Assembly (NCBI RefSeq): GCF_023055435.1
Contig: NW_025963835.1
Span: forward strand, 22,196,001-22,260,000
DNA from: Haliotis rufescens
Taxonomy: Eukaryota
Direction: 5' to 3'
Length of the DNA stretch: 64,000 nt
Part shown: positions 7,642 to 53,196 of the stretch, one piece after another
Layout: the number at the start of each line of letters is the position of its first letter
Numbering within the stretch: the first letter of the stretch is position 1
Notes under the pieces: model-generated
The model's input: only the letters and a program-made list of their open reading frames with translations
What the model was told of the DNA's origin: nothing
Database searches by the model: none
Program-made: the position numbers and the translations under genes

Positions 7642-8700
7642 TAATATGTCGTTTGATGGTTGCGGAGAGTTCTCTATAAGTGATACTCGGAACCTATATT
7701 ATGCTACAAGGCTTGTATTACAACAATGCGAGAGTCAGTAATTCTCTATTTATTGTGTCTATGCTCAATGTTCTTCGACAAAATTTGGTAGATATATCAA
7801 ACAGATCCTGAAGTGGTTATTTTTGTTTTTTTATATATTTTTGGCATTTTGATGATTTAAACCATATCTATTTCCAAGAAAAAGAAATCAGATCAGTGAA
7901 TAGGTTCAAGCTATTTACACACCTCTCCCTATAGAGGGCATTTAACAATAGCTGAGAGTAAACTGTACATAAAATAAAAAAATTCAATGAAATGTACCTA
8001 CTGTTGCGAATATTAGGATGCGAATATACAAGTAACACACAAATACACACATACACATTTGGCTACATAAACAAACAGCATGTCAGCATATCACACATAC
8101 TAACAACTATTAATTTTGATTGATGACATTTTTATGTTTCTCGATTCCCATGGAAACAATTTTTATTGAGTCTTATGAGGGGGTGTATTTTGTTTCCGGG
8201 GCACAACTCAAAAACATTTAACATCTTTCATCAAAACTCGGCACATATATCAAACAGATCCTGAAGTGGTGCCTTCTGCTATTTAGGAATTTTTCACAAA
8301 TTGATTTTTCCCTGTTTTATGGAAACAAGTTAGACTTAGGTCTTTGAAAGGCATTTAGAAGTGATACACATATTGCTTTGATCTTTGTCAGTGTTAATAA
8401 CCTAGCTGGCTTCAATTTGCCCCTTGCTATGTCCATTCTTTCACCTAGCAGTGCTAATTACTCCCGGTCTCCCGTTTGCCCAGTGTCCATAACCTATTAC
8501 TTATCTATGATAACTTATGTACTGGTATCCATACCATCAGCGCTAACTACTGTAAAGTGTTGGCTTCCATTGTCTAGTGCTAATCACCCATCAGCGCCAA
8601 TCATCTGTTGGCTTACCTTGTTAGTTTCTACTCTTTGTTATTTTCCACCTTTTGTTATGTTATTAATTTTGCTGTCCTCACATGTACATATATGTATGTA

Positions 8701-8705
<5 letters not shown>

Positions 8706-8777
<72 letters not shown>
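8706..8777. repeat. (TA)n microsatellite at the LINE 5' junction
   Basis: Direct reading. Confidence 0.97.
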
Positions 8778-8779
<2 letters not shown>

Positions 8780-10835
8780 TCTCGGAGCCCCACCCTCTTC
8801 AAAATAATGATAAACGATCTATTCGAGGGCCTATCTCCTAAAGTGAACACATCAGAATTCGCGGATGATGGAGCCATCTGGATCCGCACTAAAAGCATGA
8901 AAATGGCCCAGAATTTACTCCAAAAATCTCTTAATAAAATACATTAATGGGCTGACAAATGGGGCTTCTCCCTTAACTCAGAATAAAACAACAGGAATAG
9001 TATTCAAACATAAAAACATGAAACCCGCCTCCCCAATTCTCCAGCTAAACAATCAAACAATCAAATTTAAAAAACAAACCAAATTCTTCGGACTTATTTT
9101 CGATGAACATCTCACCTGGGATGCTCACATCCAAAACCTAACAACTAAATGCAGTAAAGACCTAAACACCCTAAGATGCCTAACTGGCTCTATCACTAAT
9201 TAGATCAAAACTAGACTACGGCTGCGCCATATACAACACCCTAAAAAACTCTCTATCTAAAAAACTGGACTCAATACAATATCAGGCTCTCTAACTAATT
9301 ACACGCACCCAACATGGCACCTCCTACACCTCACTTCAGGCCTTAACAGGAGAAATGCCACTAAGTCTACGCAGGGAACAGCTAAGCTTAAATTTCTGGG
9401 CCGCGTCCCAATCAAACCCTCTCATCCAAAACTTAATAAACCAAAACATCAGCCCCAAAAACCAAGCTCTAGCTCGTAAACACCCCTTACTTACCCCAAT
9501 ATCCCAAAGAATAACAAACTATCTAAATGAACACCAAATTAAAAATCTTAAACAAAACTGCAAACAATCAAATATCTTCACCCCTAAACTTAAAAAACCC
9601 AAAATAGACACAACACTAGCTAGCCAAAAAATTAACAAACCGACCCAACCATAGATAAAACCACCACACTAGCATACATACACGAAACTTGGCCAAATTG
9701 GTGTCACATTTACACGGACGGATCCTCAGATCCGAACTCCAAACACACAGGTTTCGGAGTCCATACCACACAACCAACTAAAACCACACAATCCTTCCGA
9801 CTCCCAAACAACCAATCAATATTCACGGCAGAACTGATGGGCATGGCCTCAGCCCTCCATAATCAAGAATCCAAAAACCACAAAAAAATCCTAATACTTA
9901 CCGACTCCTTAAGTGGACTGCAAGCCCTCCAAAACAAAAATACCAAAAACCGACCTAAATTAATAAATCAAATACTTAAAAGCTCCTACGACCTAACTAA
10001 GGCAAGCAAACAAATAACCTTCTTGTGGATACCCGCCCACGTAGGAATATACGGTTATGAAAACGCCGATAAAGCAGCTAAACTATCCCTCAAAATCCCA
10101 GAAATAAGCTTAAACTTACCCATCTCAAAAACAGAAATTAAAAGTGTAAACAAGCAAAAAATCACAAAAAATGGCATAACCTATATCTAAACTCAAATAG
10201 CCAAATCAAAAAAGTGCTCAGCAAACCACAAACCAAACCAAAAATTCTCCATCCTTCAAAAAAAATCGACAGAGTAATCACTTATCTCCAAACAGGACAC
10301 ACCAACCTAAATAACCAACTAAATAAGATAAAAACACACAACAGGTAACTCCCCTCACTGCAAACAACTAGAAACCCCAGAACACGCACTCATCCACTGC
10401 ACACACTACCTAACACATCGAACCGCATTACAAACCACCCTCAATCTAAACAAGGCTCACACTCTAGAAGCAATACTAAACCAACATAATAAACTAGAAA
10501 ACTTCAAGGCCTTAGGCGTATTCATAATTAAAACGGAACTAATAAAAAGCATCTAAAAACACAATAACCTACCAAATCAAAATCACATAAACAAACAAAC
10601 ATCCACCATACCCAGCTCCCTTAGTTCTCCTCCCCGACCCCATCGGCATCTATTCCAAATTTCAAAATTTCCAAATTCTATATAAGCAACCCCTAAAGCC
10701 CCCTCTTGGGTTACTCAGACCACTTTCGCCCCTTTCGGAAACACATTAAATGGCCTGGCCGGGCCCGTGTGCGAAATACGCATCAGTCGGAAAGCGCACG
10801 TTAAATCTCCAAAGCAAGTAAGTAAGTAAGTAAGT
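8778..10835 (+). mobile_element. 5'-truncated, decayed non-LTR retrotransposon of the I group (Nimb/Ingi/I-like): RT C-terminus, RNase H, CCHC knuckle, (AAGT)n tail
   Basis: SPTLF...FADD (RT), IRSKLDYG, YTDGS/AEL/TDS/WIPAHVGI.G.ENADKAAK (RNase H), HCKQLETPEHALIHC. Stops and frameshifts. Ends CACGTTAAA...(AAGT)5. Strong A+C strand skew. Confidence 0.9.
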
Positions 10836-10848
10836 CTTCGCATTCATT

Positions 10849-10888
10849 CACCTGATGAAGGAGTAAGCATGTACTCCGAAACGCTGTG
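10849..10888 (+). ncRNA. Penelope-type minimal hammerhead ribozyme motif
   Basis: CAC-CTGATGA-A-GGAGTA-agcatg-TACTCC-GAAAC-GCT-GTG, followed by AATAAA at 10897. Confidence 0.65.
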
Positions 10889-13125
10889 TTCCTCATAATA
10901 AAGAAGTTGACATCCATATATTATCTTCCTTAAGTTAGACTGCTGAAACGGAGGTAGGTGTCGTTTCCGGGGTAGAACTAAAACATTCTTCAACAGTTTG
11001 CATCCAAACTTGGTAATGTATTAATCAAGGACTGAAGTTATGTCTTTTCGTAGTTAGGAATTTAAAAGAAATTCCTGTTTCCATGGCAACAGGTTTGTTT
11101 TGAGTCTGCTCATAGTAGTGTGTTTGTCCGGACCATCTCTCTAAAACTAATTGGTATTCTTCTTGAAACTGTTCACACTCAAAGACCAGGTTGTCAACGG
11201 GTGTCATTTGCTATTCAGGGAATTTTAGAATTTCCATGGCAACACGTTTGAATTTGATTCTGTTCATAGTGATGTGCACCTAAGGTGGAAATACAAAGTT
11301 CCGAATACTAATTCTACGGTATTATTTTGATAGATCAATAACTGCTCTTGTATATGGACAGACAGATTATACAGAAATCTCTCATCAAGTTGGACATAAG
11401 GTAACAGTCAGATGATTTGTTCCTTTGTAGTTGCGGGGACCGGGGGGATTTGTCTTCTGACATGATAACTCTTGTGTTAATCACTTTTGAGATATACACA
11501 TTTGCTATGCCAATTTTTCGCGTACTGCTGGGTGTGTGTTGTCTATGATAATGTAATCATAAAATGCTTGCGAAGCTTTACAGGGTTTGAATAAATGGAG
11601 TGCTTCTTTACTAATTCACAGGTTGAATATCGTTATTGATTTTTTTACCATTTAACTTAATAATATCCTTCCGACTGAAGGGTATATAGTGTAGCATTTT
11701 GTTTTGATGAAATCATCCAAAATGATCTATTTGAAATTATAGTTCAAATGTTAATATACCATTCCCATCCCAAATATTTTTTTAATAAAGCATATGCCCT
11801 TGTCAAACCAGTATTTTTGTTATCATAACCTGTTTTGGTTGTGACATGGTTTAACACAGTTGCCTGACTGTTGAGGTTTCCGTCAGAAGGGATAAATATT
11901 TCACATAATCACCTCTAAAGGATCTTTAAGGGATCATTTGTTTTATACAAAACCTTTTTTGAAATCGGGTGAATAAATTGCTGTTATCTCGAAGGGGGTC
12001 AAGGTAGAATAAAAATATTGTTCCTCGGAGTGGATACTTAAGTTCCACACAATCAAAGTATATTTATGTCTTGCCACAATTTTAATAGTGGAATATTTGT
12101 TGATTTTATTTGTCGCCTAAACAAATCAGCTGTTCAATGGGTAATTGCTGTCGCCTAAACAACAATCGCCAGCAGCTGAAGAGATGTTGTAAATCCTGAT
12201 GGGGGTACCATGTAGGCAGGAGTAATAAATACGTCCACATGATCCCCAGTGGCAATCTTAGCCCCTTTTTATAATGCCTTTTCAAAGTGATGCCTTTTTT
12301 ATGGCCACATACAAGTTTTAAGTATAAATCTGCGTCCTTGTCGACAGATTTTAAAAAGTGTGGGTTATGTATTTTTAAATACTGCCGATCTATAATTCTA
12401 TAAACTCACTCACTCACAAATATGTAATTCTATTTGCCAAAGTATGTATTGTTTATCAAGGTTGACTGAAAAATTAACGCCACTCAATGTTGTCGTACAG
12501 TAGTCCAGGAAGGAGTTAAGTGCTACAGTGGTATCGATCAGCGTCGGTAACAGCTGACGACGACAGCATTGGAATTGATGCTGGTTATGTTGTCAAACTG
12601 AGGCATGACAAAGCCAGACTACAATATACAATGGGTAATACGTTGCTATTACTTTTAACGACTCTCCAGCAAATGTTCACTTGGTATAAATAAACTTGTA
12701 AGTAATCGATTTCTTCTAGGTCTCCTATTTTGAGCGATAGAATAGCCCTATATTTTTAGATTATGCATGGAAGAGTATCGTAGCAAGAATTAGGGAATTA
12801 GAAAACAGATGCATTACAACGATTGGTAAATTCAACAGATATTGTCAAAGTTTCCGTCCTGTGTGACGTCATGACTGACGCAAACTCACGTACAACTTCG
12901 ACGTTTTTTTATCGGCATTTCTGACTATTTCTCTTGGTTACAATGTACAACATAAACATATTAATAACAAAATGTTTCTGACTACTTACATGGCACATTT
13001 ATGTACAATCAACGAGAATCAACGAAAGTCCCCACGAAAATCCCGCATAATGATGTCAGTGGAAACACCATTTTGTGAAGGTGATCACGAGTTGTGATGT
13101 CATACGTCAACATATATTGTACATA

Positions 13126-14118: not shown

Positions 14119-14810
14119 CCTAGACTGTATGATGTGATGAACATTAGACTCGTTCATGGTGAAACTCCTCTCACCCAAATCAGCTGGGCCTGCTTCAAAA
14201 CGAAGCTCATGCAGAGACAGGCGACAGCAGTCCACTGAAATGCACTGTAACACGTCTCCCTCATTCAAGTCAAATACTGGCTGGTATTAACGTGAAGCAA
14301 ACGACGCACAGGAACATAATTACGGATGACGCCATGTCACATATGGAACGATCACGTGACACATGAAGCTGAATAAGTCGTAGAAAAGTCAATCAATATG
14401 TATAAAACTTATTGGTATTGTTGTATGCATACACACCATAGACACGACCAGCAGGTATGTAGTTTAGACTTACGATAATGGTACGGGTTTTCATATCCAC
14501 GACTAGTTTAATTTAATCTTATTGACATTGCAATTGCATGTAGGAAGTTTTGTGGAATGATATGGAACATTAACGTGGATTTTAAAAGTGGATTTTGTAA
14601 TATAATTCGTTATAGCCGATAGATCGCTATATCCGTTGGTTATAGCCGATAGATCGCTGTGTCCGTTGGTTCGAAGCACCGTACCCAAGTTCGCCCTTGT
14701 ATACCGGTCTGTATCCCGGGCTCGTATGTTTCACCAACTCGACCACCCGTACCCCAACACAATATATAAAACACAGCAAGGAGGAAAATAGATACAGATT
14801 GTAAATCAAG

Positions 14811-15003
14811 TCTTGGAAGGCATTTAGAATGATACACATAAGGAAGAGAATTTATGGATGTTAACTTCTTTATTATGAGGAACACAACGTTTCGTAGTAT
14901 ATGCTCTCTGCCTCATAGGATTCATTCATCTGATGAAGGAGTAAGGATATACTCCGAAACGATGTTCCTCATAATAAAGAAGTTATCCATAGATTTTCTT
15001 CCT
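14811..15003. mobile_element. Inverted pair of Penelope-like terminal repeats with hammerhead motif (+ copy core 14930-14960; degenerate - copy about 14840-14919)
   Basis: CTGATGAAGGAGTAAGGATATACTCCGAAAC...AATAAAGAAGTT; left arm is the reverse complement of the same cassette; same family as 10841-10931 and 42215-42303. Confidence 0.65.
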
Positions 15004-15107
15004 TTGAAAGAAAAATCATTAGACATATTGTCCCGTCGACTATCACAACTACATACAGTGTGTTCCGGTTACAGGAGACGAACAGCAGTAATTTCCGTCC
15101 AGACATC

Positions 15108-18100
15108 ATGAGGTTCAACATGAAGACCGCGGTCACTTTGCTGCTGTTGTTTGTCGCCGTGGTGCTGTTCCTGTTGAGGCGCAGTCACACTGCGGTAACT
15201 GCCACGCGTCAACAGGTGGAAGTGAAGAGCTGGGCGGAAGAGTATGAACAGGCAAAGACGAAGGACTCCCTTATACTACCCGCTTCCGGCGTCGTTAACG
15301 TCATAGAGGAACACCATGAGGGTAGGTGACAAAGATGGACTGGACAGATGATTGTGCACGGGGGTGTCTGTAGGAGACGATGTTGTCGCGATCAGGTGGT
15401 GGTGTGAGTGAGTAGTATGGTTTTAGCAATATTCCAGCCCTGTCACGACCAGAAACACAAGAAATAGGCTTCACACATTGTACAGCGGGCCGTCGAACCC
15501 GGGTGTTGGGAGAGCACCGGAGGTAGGAGACAAAGATGAAATGGTCAGATGATCATGCAGTAGTGTATATGTAGGGGTCGAGTTTGTCTGATCAGGTGGT
15601 GATGGAGGAGACGATGGTGCAGCGATCGGGTGATGTTTGGGGAGAGTATGTTGTAGCGATCATGCAGATGGTGGTGGAGGAGACGATGTTGTAGAGATAA
15701 GATGGTGGTGGAGAAGACGATGTTGTAGCAATCAGATGGTGCTGGAGGTGACGATGCTGTAGCGATCCGATGGTGCTGGAGGAGAAAAATGCTGTAGCGA
15801 TCAGAATGTAGTGAGGTGACGATGCTGTAGCGATCAGATGGTGGTGGAGGAGACGATGTTGCAGCGATAAGATGGTGGTGGAGGAGACAATGTTGTAGCG
15901 ATCAGATGGTGGTGGAGGAGACGATGTTGTAGCGATCAGATGGTGGAGGAGGAGACGACGTTGCAGCGATAAGATGTTGCCGGAGGAGACAATGTTGTAG
16001 CGATAAGATGGTTGTGGAGGAGACGATGTTGTAGCGATAGGATGGTGGTGGAGGAGTCGACGTTGCAGCGATCAGGTGGTGGTGCAGGAGACGATATAGT
16101 ATTCTGTACACGTGTGTGTTGCTGCACTAATGTCCTAACTGTGGTAGAATAGGTCTTCAGCAACCCATGCTTTCCGTAAAAGGCGACTATGCTTGTCGTA
16201 AGAGGCGACTAACGGGATCGGGTGGTCAGGTCATGCACGTCATCGCATCCCAATTGCGTGGATTGATGCTCATGATGTCAATCACCGGATTGTCTGGTCC
16301 AAACTTGATAATTTACTGAACGCCATCATATAGCTGGAATAAAGCTGGAGTGCGGCGTTAAACAACATAAAAACGAAACAAACGGTACTTACCTGTGTGT
16401 CTGTTGCAGAACTGGTATGTGTATTCAAGCACTGATGCACTCTGTGTGTATGGTGCAGCACTGATATACTCACAATGTGTGTTGTAGCACTGATGCATTG
16501 TGAGTACTCTTTGTATGTGTTGTAACTCTCAATTTGATATTCTACATGTGTAGTGATTTACTCTGTGCTATTTGTTGCAGCACTGATGTACTGGTTCTCG
16601 GCCGCGTCGAATGGGACCATCAAGAAACAGGGTAACACCTTGGTAATATCCTTTTCGCCATATCATACCCTCATATATGTACATTTGCAGTGACCAGGCG
16701 ATGGTGAACAATATGTGAAGGCAATTGACGTTGTTACCTGAATATTCATCAGACTTGTGTCAAACCATACGTGAAAACACACTCTCTCATCCCCTCACCC
16801 ACTCTCTCACTCACCCACATACATTCACTCACACAGATATTTATATATGTGTGTGCATATATATGTGTGTGTATATGTACGTGTCTTGGTAAAATAGATC
16901 TTCACCAACCCATTCTTGCTGTAAAATGCGACTATGCTTATCGTAATAGGCGACTAACGGGATCGGGTGGTCAGACTCGCTGACTTGGTTGATGCATGTC
17001 ATCGTATTGCAATTGCGTTGATCGATGCTCATGATGTCAATCACTGTATTGTCTTGTTGAGACTCAATTATTTACAGTCCGCGTTTGGTTCAAGCCGCTT
17101 TGAAATGTTTTTCAGTTGTATCGCGGAATGTGATGTGGGAGGAAAACCGATGTGTTCCTATATGTATCTTACACGTTTACTACTTGTGTTTGTTTGTATG
17201 TATGTTGTCTGACGCAGCACTCAGCAATATTCCAGCTATATGGAGGCTTAAAATGTGTGAATCTCACGAGCACGACCACGCTGCTGTCAAACCAAGAATC
17301 GTAATCTGGGCAAAACGGGGATTTCACCATAGCACCATGTCAGTAACCGGAATGCACATCTACCACTAGTCTGTTTCTACCAATACAGGGCGGTACACAG
17401 ACATTTCTGTGAGAATTAAAATACTGAACAAAGCGCTCGACATGAGCAACACAAACGCCTTCATATGTGTTACTTTGTTAATCGACCATGATCATATAGC
17501 TGGAATATTGTGCAGCGTTAAACAACAAATAAACAAACAAAACAAACATTTGTGTTGAGATGCATTAGTAGACTGAGTTTTTAAGACCCATTTAGTAAAA
17601 TTCAGAACTCGCTGGTCGCAAGTACCAGATTCGTCCTATTGATGATCTTCGGTACAAGGCGAGATAATGTCGTACAACGCAAGATAAATGTCGTACAACT
17701 CAAGATTAATGTCGTACAACGCAAGATAAATGTTGTACAACGCAAGCTAAATTTCGTACAATGCGATATATCACGCGTCAGCCTCCAGTTTTATGATATG
17801 CAGCTCCAGTGGTATTCAGATGGCTTACTTTTTATCATTTATCTTACCCTGATCGACGTTAACATACTCTACTTCCTGTTACCCTGCCTTGCGCATGGCA
17901 TTAACAGGGTAAAACAATGCTGTCACACATTGTGATACAGATAGAAGCTCATTGTTCATAGTATTATTTACCATCATGTCAATAATTAACTGAATGAAAT
18001 GCACGGTCCTGAATACTGGGTAATCGTTTTAAGTCCTGTTTTAGTCCTGTTCTAGTCCTGTTCTCTTCTCTTGTGTAGTTGCACATAGATGGCCACAATG

Positions 18101-21900: not shown

Positions 21901-22157
21901 TATCACTTACATTCATAGGAGCTACATTGCCAAACCATTTTTATTAATATGTTTCTTATATGTTTTGTAATACTGAGAAATAGGGAATAAAGTCTGATAC
22001 GCAGTAATTTGAATTCAAAGTTGCTTGTGGTATAAGTTTCCGTAGGAGGGGAATGCAATTGTAGACTATCGATTGAGGTTTTCTGGAGGCTACATGGGTC
22101 TCTGCTAGGTTGAGGCCCCAACCAATCTTCCATGTCAAAGTAGCAGCTTGTCATTTC

Positions 22158-22745
22158 CATGATAGCAAAGTAGCATCACGCCACCCATGATAGCAAAGTA
22201 GCATCACCCCACCCATGATAGCAAAGTAGCATCACCCCACCGATGATAGCAAAGTAGCATCACCCGACCCATGATAGCAAAGTAGCATCACGCCACCAAT
22301 GATAGCAAAGTAGCATCACCCCACCCATGATAGCAAAGTAGCATCACGCCACCCATGATAGCAAAGTAGCATCACCCCACCCATGATAGCAAAGTAGCAT
22401 CACCCCACCGATGATAGCAAAGTAGCATCACCCGACCCATGATAGCAAAGTAGCATCACCCCACCCATAATAGCAAAGTAGCATCACCCCACCCATGATA
22501 GCAAAGTAGCATCACCCCACCCATGATAGCAAAGTAGCATCACCCCACCCATGATAGCAAAGTAGCATCACCCCACCCTTGATAGCAAAGTAGCATCACC
22601 CCACCCATGATAGCAAAGTAGCATGACCCAACACATGATAGCAAAGTAGCATCATCCCACCCATGATAGCAAAGTAGCATTACCCGACCCATGATAGCAA
22701 AGTAGCATCATCCCACCCATGATAGCAAAGTAGCAGCACGTCACC
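22158..22745. repeat. 29-bp minisatellite (about 20 units)
   Basis: CATGATAGCAAAGTAGCATCACCCCACCC. Confidence 0.95.
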
Positions 22746-22829
22746 AATGTCGAAGTTGCAGTTTATCGAGGTATTTATAGTTCACATTTAGCGGTCTGTG
22801 GGATTTGAATCTAGTAGCACGTCATACCT

Positions 22830-24002
22830 TCCAGACTATAGGATTTCAATGTTGTAACACGTCTCATCATTAAGACGGTAGGACCTCAGTGTTGTGACAC
22901 CTCAAATAATACAGACTGTGGGGTCGCTATGTTGTAACACGTCACATCATGTGGACGATAGGACCTCAGTGTTGAAACACGTCACATCATGCAGAGTGTA
23001 GGATCTCTATGTTGTAACACGTCACATCATGTAGAGTGTAGCATCTCTATGTTGTAACACGTCACATCATGTCGAGTGTAGGATCTCTATGTTGTAACAC
23101 GTCACATCATGTAGACTGAAGGATCTCTATGTTGTAACACGTCACATCATGTAGAGTGTAGGATCTCTATGTTGTAACACGTCACGTCGTGTAGACTGAA
23201 GGATCTCTATGTTGTAACACGTCACATCATGTAGAATGAAGGATCTCCATGTTGTAACACGTCACATCATGCAGACTGAATGACCTCGATGTTATAACAA
23301 TTCAAATAATGCAGACAGTACGACAACAGTGTTGTTACACGTCACATGCGGACGATAGGATCTCTATGTTGTAACACGTCACATCATGTAGACTGTAGGA
23401 CCTCAATGTTGGAGTTTGTCACATCATGCAGACTGTAGGATATCAATGTTGTAACACGTCAAATCATGTAGACTGAAGGATCTCCATGTTGTAACACGTC
23501 ACATCATAAAGACTGAATGACCTCAATGTTGTAACAATTCAAATAATGCAGACTGTACGACAACAATGTTGTTACACGTCACATGCGGACGATAGGATCT
23601 CTATGTTGTAACACGTCACATCATGCAGAATGTAGGATCTCTATGTTGTAACACGTCACAACATGCAGACTGTAGGATCTCTATGTTGTAACACGTCACA
23701 TCATGCAGACTGTAGGATCTCTATGTTGTAACACGTCACATCATGCAGACTGTAGGACCTCAATGTTGTAGTATGTCACATCATTCAGAATGTAGGATCT
23801 CATTGTTGTAATACGTCACATCATGCGGAAGATAGGACCTCAGTGTTGAAACAGGTCACATCATGCAGAATGTGTGATCTATATGTTGTAGTATGTCTCA
23901 TCATGCAGACTGTGGGATCGCTATCCTGTAATGCGTCACATCATGCGGACTGTAGGACCTTAATTTTGAAACACGTCACATCATGCAGACTGTAGGATCT
24001 CA
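22830..24002. repeat. 40-bp minisatellite upstream of SULT-A exon 1
   Basis: GTAGGATCTCTATGTTGTAACACGTCACATCATGCAGACT. Confidence 0.93.
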
Positions 24003-24346
24003 ACGTAGCAGCTCGATATTCTTTGAGGCCTTGTGGTCACAGAGTTGTAGCACGTCACACCGTATCAAGGTGATAACTCATCACAGTTTGCAGGCTATCA
24101 GGTCAATAAGTAGTTAGGGCGTCAATAAGTAGCAGCCCCATGATGTCAGTGCATTGTCACTTCTGAAGAGTGTGTTCCCAATTCCCATTTCACACAAATT
24201 CCAACAAAAATATTGTTTTACAGCAGTTTTTCTTACCATTCAGTATCTGACATCTTTCATTTGAGATTCAAGTCTTGTATGACCATTTTCAGACTCTTCA
24301 GACACTCCGCTCAAGGCTTTGACGAATACGACAACCGACGTCCGAC

Positions 24347-32812: not shown

Positions 32813-32937
32813 CACAGGAGTCCGTATCTAAAAATAGACGCCCTCATGCATATTCATGACCATCTCCGCACGCGTGCCCGAAGGAGATGGTCATGAATAT
32901 GCATGAGGGCGTCTATTTTTAGATACGGACTCCTGTG
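32813..32937. mobile_element. Perfect 55-bp-arm palindromic MITE
   Basis: Arms 32813-32867 and 32883-32937, 15-nt spacer, flanks gttcacg and gttcatg. Confidence 0.8.
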
Positions 32938-33771: not shown

Positions 33772-36700
33772 CAGGATCACAGTGTACAAGTATGTCTCAC
33801 AGTGACGGCTGTAGGATCACAGTGTACAAGTATGTCTCACAGTGACGGCTGTATGATCACAGTGTACAAGTATGTCTCACAGTGACGGCTGTATGATCAC
33901 AGTGTACAAGTATGTCTCACAGTGACGGCTGTATGATCACAGTGTACAAGTATGTCTCACAGTGACGGCTGTATGACCACTGTGTACAAGTATGTCTCAC
34001 AGTGACGGCTGTAGGATCACAGTGTACTAGTATGTCTCACAGTGACGGCTGTATGATCACAGTGTACAAGTATGTCTCACAGTGACGGCTGTATGATCAC
34101 AGTGTACAAGTATGTCTCACAGTGACGGCTGTATGATCACAGTGTACAAGTATGTCTCACAGTGACGGCTGTATGATCACAGTGTACTAGTATGTCTCAC
34201 AGTGACGGCTGTAGGATCACGGTGTACAAGTATGTCTCACAGTGACGGCTGTAGGATCACAGTGTACAAGTATGTCTCACAGTGACGGCTGTATGATCAC
34301 AGTGTACAAGTATGTCTCACAGTGACGGCTGTATGATCACAGTGTACAAGTATGTCTCACAGTGACGGCTGTATGATCACGGTGTACAAGTATGTCTCAC
34401 AGTGACGGCTGTATGATCACAGTGCATCCGCCTTTGCGTGAGAAATGACTTAAATTTGTCCCATGCTCCCCAAACCTAAAACATTGCTCCATCCACAGAC
34501 ATATACAAACAACAAAGTGAATAAAATATTAAAAAATTTTTTTTATTATTTTATAACTGTCATAATGAGCCAGATAATAAAATGTTTTAAAGGCAATGTT
34601 TGGGCAGTGTGACTAGAAGTGAGTTTTCTATTGCACTCACAACCTGCGTCTACATGTGAACAAAAACTTTCCCATTTCATCATATTTTTCCATATTTTCT
34701 AAAATCCTATAATTACATACCATACAGTATGACGGGCATTATATTACAGTGAACTAGTTTGTAAAACGTAAACGCCGCTTTTAGAACAGACTATACGAAT
34801 ATTACAATCGTTACAACCATTTTTCAACATTACATTACATTACAACATTACAATCATAGCCTCCCTGCTGTGATGCTGCTTCGATTGAAGAGTGACATTA
34901 TAAACTCTTCTAAATCAACCAACACTACAAGGTGTGTGTTTGACGTAGTTGGGTCTAAACGTATGATGAGGTCACACTATGCGATCTGTAGAATTTAGAT
35001 ATAAAAGTACGTTACACGATGCGGGTTGTAGGATATCCATGTACTAACACGCCAGTTTTGCAGTCAATGTAGACGTACGTCACACCACGGGGACTGTCGA
35101 TCTCAGTGCAGCGTAATGTGACTCCGTGCGAACTGTAGGATGACACTATAATGGAACGTCTAACAGTGACGGCTGTAGGATCACAGTGTACTCGTATGTC
35201 TCACAGTGACGGCTGTATGATCACAGTGTACTAGTATGTCTCACAGTGATGGTTGTAGGATCACAATGTACTAGTATGTCTCACAGTGACGGTTGTATGA
35301 TCACAGTGTACTAGTATGTCTCACAGTGACGGCTGTATGATCACAGTGTACTAGTATGTCTCACAGTGACGGCTGTATGACCACAGTGTACTAGTATGTC
35401 TCACAGTGACGGCTGTAGGATCACAGTGTACTAGTATGTCTCACAGTGACGGCTGTAGGATCACAGTGTACTAGTATGTCTCAGAGTGACGGCTGTAGGA
35501 TCACAGTGTACTTGTGTGTCTCACATTGACGGCTGTATGATCACAGTGTACAAGTATGTCTCACAGTGACGGCTGTAGGATCACAGTGTACTAGTATGTT
35601 TCACAGTGGCGGCTGTAGGATCACAGTGTACTAGTATGTCTCACAGTGACGGTTGTAGGATCACAGTGTACTAAATCGTCACACAATGAGGGCTGTATGA
35701 CCATAATGTACTGGCACGTCACACAATGGGCCAAGATAGCAATGCAATCAAACGTCAGACCATGTTGGCTGTAAGATCACGGCTATAGGATCACAGTGTA
35801 CGAGTATGTCTCACAGTGACGGCTGTAGGATCACAGTGTACAAGTATGTCTCACAGTGACGGCTGTATGATCACAGTGAACTAGTACGCCTCCGTGACGG
35901 CTGTAGGATCACAGTGTACTAGTATGTCTCACAGTGACGGCTGTAGGATCACAGTGTACAAGTATATCTCACAGTGACGGTTGTAGGATCTAAATGTACT
36001 GGTACGTCTCACATTGACGGCTGTAGGATCACAGTGTACTAGTTTGTTTCACAGTGACGGCTGTAGGATCACAGTGTACTAGTTTGTTTCACAGTGACGG
36101 CTGTAGGATCACAGTGTACAAGTATGTCTCACAGTGACGGCTGTAGGATCACAGTGTACTAGTATGTTTCACAGTGGCGGCTGTAGGATCACAGTGTACT
36201 AGTATGTCTCACAGTGACGGTTGTAGGATCACAGTGTACTAAATCGTCACACAATGAGGGCTGTATGACCATAATGTACTGGCACGTCACACAATGGGCC
36301 AAGATAACAATGCAATCAAACGTCAGACCATGTTGGCTGTAAGATCACGGCTATAAGATCACAGTGTACGAGTATGTCTCACAGTGACGGCTGTAGGATC
36401 ACAGTGTACAAGTATGTCTCACAGTGACGGCTGTAGGATCACAGTGAACTAGTACGTCTCCGTGACGGCTGTAGGATCACAGTGTACTAGTATGTCTCAG
36501 ACCATGTTGGCTGTAAGATCACGGCTATAGGATCACAGTGTACGAGTATGTCTCACAGTGACGGCTGTAGGATCACAGTGTACAAGTATGTCTCACAGTG
36601 ACGGCTGTAGGATCACAGTGAACTAGTACGTCTCCGTGACGGCTGTAGGATCACAGTGTACTAGTATGTCTCACAGTGACGGCTGTAGGATCACAGTGTA

Positions 36701-38520
36701 CTAGTATATCTCACAGTGACGGTTGTAGGATCTAAATGTACTGGTACGTCTCACATTGACGGCTGTAGGATCACAGTGTACTAGTTTGTTTCACAGTGAC
36801 GGCTGTAGGATCACAGTGTACTAGTTTGTTTCACAGTGACGGCTGTAGGATCACAGTGTACTAGTATGTCTCCGTGACGGCTGTAGGATCACAGTGCACT
36901 AGTATGTCTCACAGTGACGGCTGTATGATCACAGTGTACAAGTTTGTCTCACATCGACGGCTCTATGATCACAGTGTACAAGTATGTCTCACAGTGACGG
37001 CTGTAGGATCACAGTGTACTTGTACGTCTCACAGTGACGGCTGTAGGATCACAGTGTACTAGTATGTCTCACAGTGACGGTTGTAGGATCACAGTGTACT
37101 AGTATGTCTCCGTGACGGCTGTAGGATCACAGTGTACTGGTATGTCTCACAGTGACGGCTGTAGATTCAGAGTGCACTAGTATATCTCACAGTGACGGTT
37201 GTAGGATCACAATGTACTGGTACGTCTCACAGTGACGGCTGTAGGATCACAGTGTACTAGTTCGTTTCACAGTGACGGCTGTAGGATCACAGTGTACTAG
37301 TTTGTTTCACAGTGACGGCTGTAGGATCACAGTGTACTAGTATGTCTCCGTGACGGCTGTAGGATCACAGTGCACTAGTATGTCTCACAGTGACGGCTGT
37401 ATGATCACAGTGTACAAGTTTGTCTCACATCGACGGCTCTATGATCACAGTGTACAAGTATGTCTCACAGTGACGGCTGTAGGATCACAGTGTACTAGTA
37501 CGTCTCACAGTGACGGCTGTAGGATCACAGTGTACTAGTATGTCTCACAGTGACGGTTGTAGGATCACAGTGTACTAGTATGTCTCCGTGACGGCTGTAG
37601 GATCACAGTGTACTGGTATGTCTCACAGTGACGGCTGTAGATTCACAGTGTACTAGTATATCTCACAGTGACGGTTGTAGGATCACAATGTACTGGTACG
37701 TCTCACAGTGACGGCTGTAGGATCACAGTGTACTAGTTTGTTTCACAGTGACGGCTGTAGGATCACAGTGTACTAGTATGTCTCACAGTGACGGCTGTAG
37801 GATCACAGTGTACTAGTATGTCTCAGAGTGACGGCTGTAGGATCACAGTGTACTAGTATGTCTCGAGGTGACGGCTGTAGGATCACAGTGTACTTGTGTG
37901 TCTCACATTGACGGCTGTATGATCACAGTGTACTAGTATGTCTCACAGTGACGGCTGTAGGATCACAGTGTACTGGTATGTCTCACAGTGACGGCTGTAG
38001 GATCACAGTGCAATAGTATGTCTCACATTGACGGCTGTAGGATCACAGTCAAAAGTATGTCTCACAGTGACGGCTGTAGGATCACAGTGCACTAGCAAGT
38101 CTCACAGTGACGGCTGCAGGATCACAGTGTACTAATATGTCTCACTGTGACGACTATAGGATCACAGTGTACTAATATGTCTCACAGTGACGGCTGTAGG
38201 ATCACAGTGTACTAAAGCGTCACAACATGAGGGCTGTAGGATCGCAATGTACTAAACGTCACACCACGGGGGTTGTAGGATCACAATGTACTGGTACGTC
38301 TCACAATGACAGCTCTAGGATCACAGTTTTCACAAACGTAATACCACATGGGCTATATGATCACAATCCACTAAAACATGACACCATGTGGGCTTTAATA
38401 TCGCAATGTACTAAAACATCAAACCATGTGGGATGTAAGATCCAATATACTGGTACGTCACACCATGTGGGATGTAGGACCACTATGTACTAGAACGTCA
38501 TATCATGTTGTCTTTAGGAT
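33772..38520. repeat. 40-bp minisatellite upstream of SULT-B exon 1 (interrupted about 34425-35160)
   Basis: GTAGGATCACAGTGTACTAGTATGTCTCACAGTGACGGCT. Confidence 0.95.
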
Positions 38521-38968
38521 CTGAATGACAAAGAACGTCACGCCATATGCGGACTGTTGGATATCAGTGTTCTGTTAATGTCACACATGGAGGGCTACAG
38601 GATCTCAGAGTAACAGCACGTCACACCATATCAAGGCAGTTTCACGTCAGACCTTGAGGCCTGTGTGGTCACACAGTAGTAGCGTGGCACATCACATCAA
38701 GGTGAAAGCACTTTTCAGTTTGCAGATGAAGTGGTCAATAAGAAGTAGTACCACACACTATAATAGCAAAGCAGCCCCTTGACGTCAGTGCATTGTCAAA
38801 ATTTAAGTCTTTCCGGAAACGTTGTTTGTTCGAAAATACCCATTCTTAGCAAAATGTCACTATTCACTGTATGACATGTTTCTTTTCAGATTCAAATCGC
38901 GCGTGACCATTTAGACGCTTCAGACACTCTGCTCACCAGGTGAACGAACAAGACGACCTTCCGTCACC

Positions 38969-43969
<5,001 letters not shown>

Positions 43970-51313: not shown

Positions 51314-52770
51314 GAGCGGGTAGAGAAGACTGCGGGAGTGGGTAGAGAGGGTGGAGTGAAGGGGTGTGAGGTGGCAGAGCGGGTAGAGAAGACTGCGGGA
51401 GTGGGTAGAGAGGGTGGATTGAAGGGGTGTGAGGTGGCAGAGCTGGTAGAGAAGACTGCGGGAGTGGGTAGAAAGGGTGGAGTGAAGGGGTGTGAGGTGG
51501 CAGAGCGGGTAGAGAAGACTGCGGGAGTGGGTAGAGAGGGTGGAGTGAATGGGTGTGAGGTGGCAGAGTGGGTAGAGAAGACTGCGGGAGTGGGTAGAGA
51601 GGGTGGAGTGAAGGGGTGTGAGGTGGCAGAGCGGGTAGAGAAGACTGCGGGAGTGGGTAGAAAGGGTGGAGTGAAGGGGTGTGAGGTGGCAGAGCGGGTA
51701 GAGAAGACTGCGGGAGTGGGTAGAGAGGGTGGAGTGAATGGGTGTGAGGTGGCAGAGTGGGTAGAGAAGACTGCGGGAGTGGGTAGAGAGGGTGGAGTGA
51801 AGGGGTGTGAGGTGGCAGAGCGGGTAGAGAAGACTGCGGGAGTGGGTAGAGAGGGTGGAGTGAAGGGGTGTGAGGTGGCAGAGCGGGTAGAGAAGACTGC
51901 GGGAGTGGGTAGAGAGGGTGGAGTGAAGGGGTGTGAGGTGGCAGAGTGGGTAGAGAAGACTGCGGGAGTGGGTAGAGAGGGTGGAGTGATGGGGTGTGAG
52001 GTGGCAGAGCGGGTAGAGAAGACTGCGGGAGTGGGTAGAGAGGGTGGAGTGAAGGGGTGTGAGGTGGCAGAGTGGGTAGAGAAGACTGTGGGAGTGGGTA
52101 GAGAGGGTGGAGTGAAGGGGTGTGAGGTGGCAGAGCGGGTAGAGAAGACTGCGGGAGTGGGTAGAGAGGGTGGAGTGAAGGGGTGTGAGGTGGCAGAGTG
52201 GGTAGAGAAGACTGCGGGAGTGGGTAGAGAGGGTGGAGTGATGGGGTGTGAGGTGGCAGAGCGGGTAGAGAAGACTGCGGGAGTGGGTAGAGAGGGTGGA
52301 TTGAAGGGGTGTGAGGTGGCAGAGCGGGTAGAGAAGACTGCGGGAGTGGGTAGAGAGGGTGGAGTGAAGGGGTGTGAGGTGGCAGAGTGGGTAGAGAAGA
52401 CTGTGGGAGTGGGTAGAGAGTGTGGAGTGAATGGGTGTGAGGTGGCAGAGTGGGTAGAGAAGACTGTGGGAGTGGGTAGAGAGGGTGGAGTGAATGGGTG
52501 TGAGGTGGCAGAGTGGGTAGAGAAGACTGCGGGAGTGGGTAGAGAGGGTGGAGTGAATGGGTGTGAGGTGGCAGAGTGGGTAGAGAAGACTGTGGGAGTG
52601 GGTAGAGAGGGTGGAGTGAATGGGTGTGAGGTGGCAGAGTGGGTAGAGAAGACTGTGGGAGTGGGTAGAGAGGGTGGAGTGAATGGGTGTGAGGTGGCAG
52701 AGTGGGTAGAGAAGACTGTGGGAGTGGGTAGAGAGGGTGGAGTGAAGGGGTGTGAGGTGCCAGAGTGGGT
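51314..52770. repeat. 63-bp G-rich minisatellite (about 23 units) just 3' of the SULT-C stop codon
   Basis: GAGCGGGTAGAGAAGACTGCGGGAGTGGGTAGAGAGGGTGGAGTGAAGGGGTGTGAGGTGGCA. Confidence 0.96.
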
Positions 52771-53196
52771 ACAGGGAAGTCAGAAGGAGAGTTGTTAGGG
52801 AGTGGAAGGAGTTGATAGTGTAAGTTGTAAAGGGTTGGTAGAGGGTGTGTAGTGGTGGGGACGGCGGGAGGGAGTGGAGCGGCTAAAACGAATAACAAGG
52901 TGTGGGCTCCTTAGAGTTGGTATTGTGGATGGAGTGGATGTGCGGGAGCAGGTTATATTATTTGGATTGTGAAGAGCAGATAGAATAATAACATTGGTAC
53001 TAAATGATATGACTTAACACTTCAGCAGAGAGCTTGTCATTAAAGGTATGCATTACACCCAAACTTTATAACTATTCTTTCACTGATATTTCCTCTCAAA
53101 AAGATGGAGCTGTCTAAAATATAGCCAATGTCCATTCTGATAAGGGGCAATTGATGGCCAGTGTTATCCAAACGCGGTGCCTAATACTATCTGGCG

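Follow-up and report, generated by a model that had tools for sequence, protein, structure and literature searches.

The hammerhead cassettes dealt with in this work are closest to the minimal hammerhead ribozymes (min-HHR) of the pLTRs of metazoan Penelope-like elements (PLEs), which were described as mostly solo motifs of truncated elements, with opposite-strand pairs and a U3-A8 variant, and whose cleavage in vitro was reported to be low and dimer-dependent (PMC4209133). As for the elements themselves, 5' truncation, an inverted partner and a 30-40-bp tail have been described for PLEs, and an endonuclease (EN) with CCHH residues and no linker finger is considered a Penelope/Poseidon trait (PMC8557442), while reverse transcription is described as starting internally, at tail ends (PMC11167929). 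Non-LTR retrozymes, for their part, have been defined as tandem units (bioRxiv 10.64898/2026.07.22.740005). The second element at the locus is a LINE whose closest counterparts are the Drosophila I element and the Nimb LINEs; Nimb has been found in molluscs and fish, and TATA goes unmentioned in the passages of these reports devoted to the I element and Nimb (PMC10018349, PMC4758252). Finally, insertion guided by promoter factors is known from TRE5-A, whose ORF1p binds TBP, Brf1 and Bdp1, and from Ty3, which needs TBP and Brf1 (PMC5911963), and in the literature that we found promoter-guided non-LTR insertion is described for Pol III genes only.

The window, that is, the whole stretch of 64,000 nt of Haliotis rufescens DNA analysed here, contains the four cassettes that a sequence-only reading had located in it, and we agree with that reading that no Penelope ORF is present. 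Our overall interpretation, which we regard as probable, is that these cassettes derive from Penelope pLTRs and that the copy at 10841 was split by a LINE that lands behind TATA words, likely docked on the TATA-binding protein (TBP). The relevant features are the following, the element numbering starting at the first T of the TTCACC ahead of the core:

8338..8372, minus strand: piece of Penelope tail, 35 nt long and inverted (element +84..+118), bordering the split copy on its 5' side; 97% by blastn to the locus L003 tail
8376..8783, plus strand: 3' UTR/pLTR sequence (element -338..-17) forming the 5' half of the Penelope copy that was split; 89% to locus L010
8786..10835, plus strand: LINE, 5'-truncated and frameshifted, with RT end, RNase H, 3' UTR and (AAGT)n tail; Pfam RNase_H; 95% to locus L104
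10840..10932, plus strand: 3' half of the split copy (first cassette of the sequence-only reading), element -7..+85
10849..10888, plus strand: minimal hammerhead with helix I CAC/GUG, core CUGAUGA (10852-10858), unpaired A (10859), helix II (10860-10865/10872-10877), GAAAC (10878-10882) and U16.1 changed to C (10884)
14810..14905, minus strand: inverted copy that begins in loop II, with tail, element about +19..+116, 5' core absent
14898..15004, plus strand: direct copy, element -27..+84, without tail, with a 2-nt deletion at the cleavage triplet
42210..42303, minus strand: short copy from element 0; core and ACGUU intact, one helix II mismatch
41925..41948, minus strand: tail end of the 42303 copy, parted from it by a SINE (about 41947-42209)

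Cores of the form CTGATGA..GAAAC were found at 10852 (+), 14930 (+) and 42298 (-), which makes three window matches against zero in 100 shuffles, and the fourth cassette is the copy at 14810-14905 (-). The complete pattern that had been read from these copies, CAC-CUGAUGA..GAAAC-GUU-GUG, holds as regards the cores, but GAAAC-GUU-GUG is retained by the 42298 copy only. The 10852 copy reads GAAAC-GCU, a change of U16.1 to C that breaks the ACGU palindrome too, so that this hammerhead is predicted to be inactive, and the cleavage triplet of the 14930 copy is affected by the deletion listed above. Similarly, the AATAAA reported to follow the cassette is present in three of the four copies, but the 42298 copy has AATAAG instead. 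In all, the core is damaged or absent in three of the window cassettes and intact in one. The copy at about 14885 (-), which had been taken as decayed, turned out to be 5'-truncated within loop II. An 8-nt microhomology (TATATGCT/AGCATATA) joins it to the 14930 copy, of which it is the inverted partner, and both copies together constitute a fold-back insertion. The 42303 insertion as a whole is flanked by a duplication of 10-12 bp, GTGAAATATT (42304-42313 and 41915-41924). In a scan of the window with hammerhead models, which had been proposed as a check, no hammerhead model of Rfam was matched at E<=1.

Some neighbouring features deserve to be recorded. A probable first coding exon (15108-15325, +; MRFNMKTAVTLLLLFVAVVLFLL..., with a hydrophobic anchor and then a GT donor) lies downstream of the fold-back Penelope copies, at a distance of about 100 nt, and the 42303 copy has its Penelope tail end, together with the 3' end of the SINE, within a direct 337-bp tandem duplication (41369-42041, 99%). 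Large minisatellite arrays occupy 33773-38626 (about 40/80 bp), 51314-52774 (63 bp) and 22136-24006 (56-84 bp), with a strong GC skew in two of the three, and a near-perfect 45-bp inverted repeat at 32814-32936, possibly a MITE, gives a weak Rfam miRNA match.

The cassette had been supposed to be abundant in this genome, and the scan of its 1.33 Gb bore this out: the 13-mer CACCTGATGAAGG at the hammerhead start has 3,656 exact matches, compared with 31 for the control, and CTGATGA-N19-GAAACGTTG has 1,447 compared with one, a few of them coming from sister families. One retrieved ORF is, over 83% of its length, 100% identical to a protein named as that of Haliotis rufescens, an abalone. The family reaches about 33 nt farther in the 3' direction (the tail) and, in the 5' direction, as far as about 1 kb or more. 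The layout of the cassette, consisting of helix I (CAC/GUG), CUGAUGA, one unpaired base, a 6-bp helix II, GAAA and an ACGU palindrome replacing helix III, supports the earlier assignment to Penelope-type minimal hammerheads with a palindromic helix III. The core CUGANGA/GAAA, with its 3-8 pair and NUH triplet, was found, and the core columns are invariant in 15 natural motifs from about seven families, with C3-G8 in ten of them and U3-A8 in five. In these 15 sequences, 85% of the helix cells pair, and both sides change in seven of ten pairs. Covariation of helix II, one of the points on which the sequence-only reading had staked its proposal, is present: helices I and II score 0.58, a value reached in 0/500 shuffles and to be compared with at most 0.21 for slid controls, bearing in mind that the set comprises related sequences hand-picked with a helix II filter and that the score is no probability. 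Single-strand folding revealed no unusual stability (z from -1.7 to +0.2), as expected of a motif that would need a dimer. Among 75 family copies, the core is intact in 48 and damaged in 27, and substitutions (about 5%) are spread evenly across core, stems and flanks, from which it follows that the copies decay without visible selection; the pattern of change looks like that of dead insertions.

These motifs share with the published min-HHR (PMC4209133) a long helix II, a short helix I, an unpaired nucleotide before helix II and a palindromic 15.2-16.2, as well as the existence of U3-A8 families, of mainly solo truncated motifs and of opposite-strand pairs. They differ in that the abalone families are new, that helix I has just 3 bp within the cassette and that cleavage is here predicted. 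The hammerhead family is, in short, new but of a published kind, that of pLTR fragments.

Comparison of longer copies indicates that the cassettes are almost certainly truncated pLTR ends of a Penelope/Poseidon-type retrotransposon endowed with its own minimal hammerhead. Copies with upstream sequence extend 5' by varying lengths, and the linked RT and GIY-YIG ORFs whose search had been recommended do exist in the longer ones (L010, L191 and L189). L010 presents the endonuclease motif GCIYQIPCNCGHQYIGET about 600 nt upstream of the cassette, and L191 contains a 260-aa frame covering thumb, linker and GIY-YIG, followed by the cassette. L189, which is 89% identical in DNA to L191 over 785 nt, carries the RT (RVT_1, E 1e-5), and its RT and EN frames overlap the EN and cassette of L191, so that RT followed by a C-terminal GIY-YIG is found in an element with the cassette. 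A sister family has a 5'-truncated RT+EN open frame of 723 aa (L196) with a U3-A8 hammerhead of its own at the 3' end; the L189 RT shares 50% identity with that frame, 64% with P0006, which starts with MPFKN, and 36% with an Anolis carolinensis protein. The EN region is 29% identical to a protein named GIY-YIG endonuclease (E 2e-20), and GIY-YIG was not called by Pfam on the EN frames; the EN translations of L191 and L189 contain the CCHH residues (CNC...EH...SEH) and no CX2-5CxxC linker cysteine cluster.

At the other end, copies stop near +85, or near +118 when the tail is present. Of 24 sampled copies (30 loci minus six that were array repeats, a duplicate or members of other families), eight have the tail and nine an upstream inverted partner; 5' truncation, inverted partners and a tail of about 33 nt are thus all found in this family. 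The tail reads MPFKD from +102 at four loci, and homologous ORFs open with MPFKN, MPFKE or MPLKQ. No intact full-length copy or upstream pLTR appeared among the 150 matches scored in a protein search with the L010 endonuclease region and six extended loci of the family, and for this reason the link between the tail and the ORF start rests on homologues. The extended loci contain no pLTR-ORF-pLTR partial tandem, and the tail translates like the homologous ORF starts. In its organization, the element resembles Poseidon_Ac of Anolis, which has an RT along with a C-terminal GIY-YIG with CCHH and no linker zinc finger, undergoes 5' truncation, has an inverted partner and a 30-40-bp tail and possesses an ORF that runs from the pLTR end (PMC11167929, PMC8557442). 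Unlike that of Poseidon_Ac, the ORF start in abalone is predicted about 65 nt past the cleavage site and not at stem II.

The 10841 cassette is present, but it had been overlooked that it belongs, as one half, to a Penelope fragment of greater length, which is made up of 8376-8783 and 10840-10932 and is interrupted by an APE-RT-RNase H LINE. This LINE, about 2 kb long and 5'-truncated, lies in sense orientation just upstream of the hammerhead, has no target duplication and is accompanied by the loss of about 10 nt of target. Its RNase_H domain is recognized by Pfam at 9636-10187 (E 1.4e-18), and in the 5' Penelope half a (TA)n run (about 8684-8777) has arisen by expansion of the TATA box. In the L104 copy of the same LINE, Pfam reveals a Cys-rich ORF1 and an ORF2 with APE, RT and RNase H, and the full 5' end of the element starts with CAGTTGCAG... 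The features of the I group are found in it, namely ORF1 plus an APE-RT-RNase H ORF2, an (AAGT)n tail and variable duplications of 9-16 bp, and within this group the LINE may be Nimb-like. In common with the Drosophila I element and Nimb LINEs, it has the APE-RT-RNase H ORF2, the Cys-rich ORF1 and a 5' CAG (PMC10018349, PMC4758252), whereas the I element prefers promoters only weakly, at about 150 bp ahead of start sites, and has AT-rich targets (PMC10018349). The idea of a full-length LINE that starts at the host start site without a leader of its own was considered but had to be given up, both L104 and L080 being truncated and the true 5' end being located about 940 nt farther upstream. In two small-RNA runs, possibly from another species, the reads on 8300-11000 are mostly antisense to the LINE (3,348 and 36), and those on 8786-10835 measure roughly 30 nt and are piRNA-like; the Penelope parts received no reads in these runs, which would miss ribozyme ends.

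Insertion of this LINE is almost certainly positioned behind TATA words, at a distance of about 20 nt. From 173 LINE 3' ends found, 96 with a duplication, 61 were scored, the remaining 35 being dropped because they came via Penelope or other non-LINE routes (13), had duplications under 9 bp (11), were tandem (10) or were a duplicate (one). The duplications at the 61 sites range from 9 to 16 bp, with a mode of 11. TATAWAW with at most one mismatch occurs 16-23 nt upstream of the duplication in 47/61 sites (exact in 19/61), with a peak at -20, as opposed to 3-8/61 (exact 0-2) in nine other position windows and to 6 on average and 15 at most (exact at most 4) in shuffles. The 61 targets form 47 unrelated clusters, and when a single target per cluster is taken, 34-36 of the 47 have TATA. 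The distance from TATA to the end of the duplication peaks at 31 nt, this end falling 29-33 nt after the T in 42/47. The rule can be formulated as a first strand cut about 20 nt and a second about 31 nt from the TATA start, with the element facing downstream. As for orientation, TATAAA is forward in eight cases and reverse in one, TATAWAWR is weakly oriented (15 forward, 10 reverse), and the eighth position, on which there was no selection, is a purine in 34/47.

As a control, a tRNA-type SINE subjected to a similar duplication search yielded TATA in 3/28 sites, none exact, and a second SINE provided just two scorable sites. In contrast, a second LINE family (ORF2 41-47% identical; 386 matches) gave 5/9, four of them exact, with 0-1 in its controls, and it stacks with the first family at shared sites. 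A third LINE family had a scorable duplication in none of six loci. At free full-length 5' junctions, TATA is found at -27..-35 in 5/9, one control position window reaching 4/9.

Stubs of about 50 nt from the LINE 3' end, identical to one another (mostly 100%), were observed at L110, L111, L114, L118, L128, L138, L139, L175 and others; all begin at one point just past a GC-rich palindrome and obey the TATA rule, and they possibly reflect a strong reverse-transcription stop or a young mini-element. Pieces of both LINE families are also stacked within long arrays at L257-L263 (C52) and L281-L289 (C2), with units of about 2.9 kb and 6.4 kb, and an open frame of 454 aa, of which a part close to the end resembles a transmembrane segment, lies upstream of stacked LINEs at L098:6538-7899 (-).

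With regard to the mechanism, and arguing by analogy, we lean towards guidance of the LINE by TBP or the pre-initiation complex. The LINE would dock on bound TBP and nick about 20 nt and then about 31 nt from the T of TATA. Since the start site lies about 30 nt from TATA and melting starts 20-30 nt from it (PMC4291466), the duplication would cover the stretch that is opened in the Pol II initiation complex. TRE5-A in Dictyostelium and Ty3 in yeast also keep a set distance to a promoter element when they insert; unlike these two, which target Pol III genes, the LINE inserts in sense, 20-31 nt behind TATA words in unrelated sequences, and its targets include Pol II-type end repeats (PMC5911963).

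A less probable explanation, although one to be taken seriously, is that the LINE protein itself recognizes a TATA-like word located two helical turns ahead of the nick, without any host factor, in which case the agreement with promoter geometry would be a by-product or an evolved mimic. Indeed, an initiator is not enriched at +30 in the 47 TATA targets, and the words hit include TATA-like ones that can hardly be promoters, for example in the AATAAA region of a pLTR (L174, L184), so that the data fit direct reading of DNA as well as TBP; in addition, for RTE-clade elements a proposal exists that they bind a stretch of T located one helical turn ahead of the duplication (PMC6007223). However, the motif fits the TBP consensus, including the purine at the unselected position 8 and the forward TATAAA, and the duplication at +20..+31 coincides with the expected melting and start region. 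Moreover, 20 nt is far for an APE domain alone, which also counts against direct reading.

The presence of a TATA word in the pLTR is relevant as well to the origin of the short Penelope copies. The pLTR contains TATATATG at -29 and TCATTC/TTCACC at -3..+5, and sister pLTRs contain TATATATA 38-39 nt ahead of their cores. With a TATA box situated 29 nt ahead of the cassette, the RNA would begin just before the hammerhead (at about 0), which would make the cassette the 5' leader between the start site and an ORF beginning 102 nt after the RNA start. Reverse transcription from the +85 or +118 end would yield run-off copies of 90-120 nt or longer truncated ones, and the hammerhead would cut only as a dimer, via the ACGU palindrome, most genomic copies being presumably dead. 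The short copies may hence be run-off products of the pLTR promoter. In the 24 sampled copies, 5' starts fall at -10..+10 in 11, at -11..-60 in two and further up in 11. Counting against the model is the promoter of the D. virilis Penelope, which is TATA-less and internal (PMC2377424), in contrast to the TATA box predicted in the abalone pLTR.

The sequence-only reading had favoured a different origin, with the short copies forming a self-propagating mini-element or retrozyme, transcribed from a neighbour promoter, cleaved as a dimer, circularized and re-inserted by the Penelope RT. We consider this unlikely, and a separate, non-autonomous and ORF-less retrozyme is not supported, given that the longer copies run into an RT plus GIY-YIG gene. 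Animal retrozymes have been reported as derived from pLTRs, and the type-I hammerhead of pLTR origin and the ORF-less short copies are points of similarity with the non-LTR retrozymes, from which the window copies differ in being dispersed or inverted and in their continuity with a PLE (bioRxiv 10.64898/2026.07.22.740005). That 11 of the 24 copies begin within 10 nt of one point would fit such a unit, and so would the 42303 copy, precisely delimited and with a duplication of its own; on the other side, the remaining 13 reach 26-290 nt upstream and the short copies leave the TATA box behind. Short and longer copies are about 92-98% identical where compared, and divergence is equal in core and flanks, with the core damaged in more than a third of the 75 copies, all of which argues against independent propagation. 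Tandem copies had been put forward as a further check. Those in the window are single or inverted, with no two consecutive units that each include a complete hammerhead, and local arrays carrying the core are found at three other loci:

L228:1122-2026: 46-bp unit, about 20 repeats
L227:1355-2109: 72-bp unit, 10.5 repeats
L202:1500-1829: 83-bp unit, 4 repeats

These arrays speak for the retrozyme, and the fact that the unit length is different in each speaks against it. The 46-bp unit, barely more than the hammerhead, is the best candidate for dimer cleavage, and a retrozyme-like offshoot may exist at the three arrays. Further cassette arrays, of about 38 and 43 bp judging from the spacing, occur at C1:33.338 Mb and C1:11.311 Mb, and a tandem array of about 50 bp in L003 (5-about 900), 700 nt from a family-A copy, has a unit that resembles a degenerate hammerhead (CTGATAA...GAAACGTCGTG).

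Returning to the LINE, its association with these pLTRs is well above chance: exact junctions between a LINE tail and a hammerhead number 28 genome-wide, when about 0.07 would be expected from 1,553 LINE ends, 3,656 cores and a 31-nt gap, and the LINE lies between -13 and +4 of the element in 8/30 loci with upstream sequence. That the LINE specifically parasitises Penelope pLTRs or hammerheads is nevertheless highly improbable, in spite of these figures and of the three pLTR families hit, because a hammerhead pLTR follows just 9/107 LINE 3' ends (3/107 for the family of this cassette) and the 47 target clusters, otherwise unrelated, have the TATA word alone in common, on which grounds targeting of the hammerhead as such was rejected. 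Penelope is therefore not the target of the LINE as such and, if landing is guided by TATA, the TATA boxes of Penelope pLTRs would be one reused target among many.

Our literature search, with Repbase reports and subscription papers outside its scope, retrieved no report of a LINE insertion positioned by TATA, and the base-precise position of the LINE relative to TATA words is in itself noteworthy for specialists. A more general proposition, to which we would give an even chance, is that a clade of animal RNase H LINEs uses TBP or the open Pol II complex as a beacon, nicks the edges of the start-site bubble and settles in the promoters of mobile elements such as the Penelope pLTRs. If true, this would be the Pol II counterpart of Ty3 and TRE5 targeting, and the LINE insertions would also map TATA promoters genome-wide. 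Should the LINE be guided by TBP, it would allow the tethering of a LINE to the Pol II machinery to be put to the test, and promoter-directed gene insertion might be developed from it. It would also lend indirect support to a TATA promoter placed just upstream of the Penelope hammerhead, and such a promoter in the pLTR bears on where the RNA of the PLE starts and on why many of its short copies begin there.
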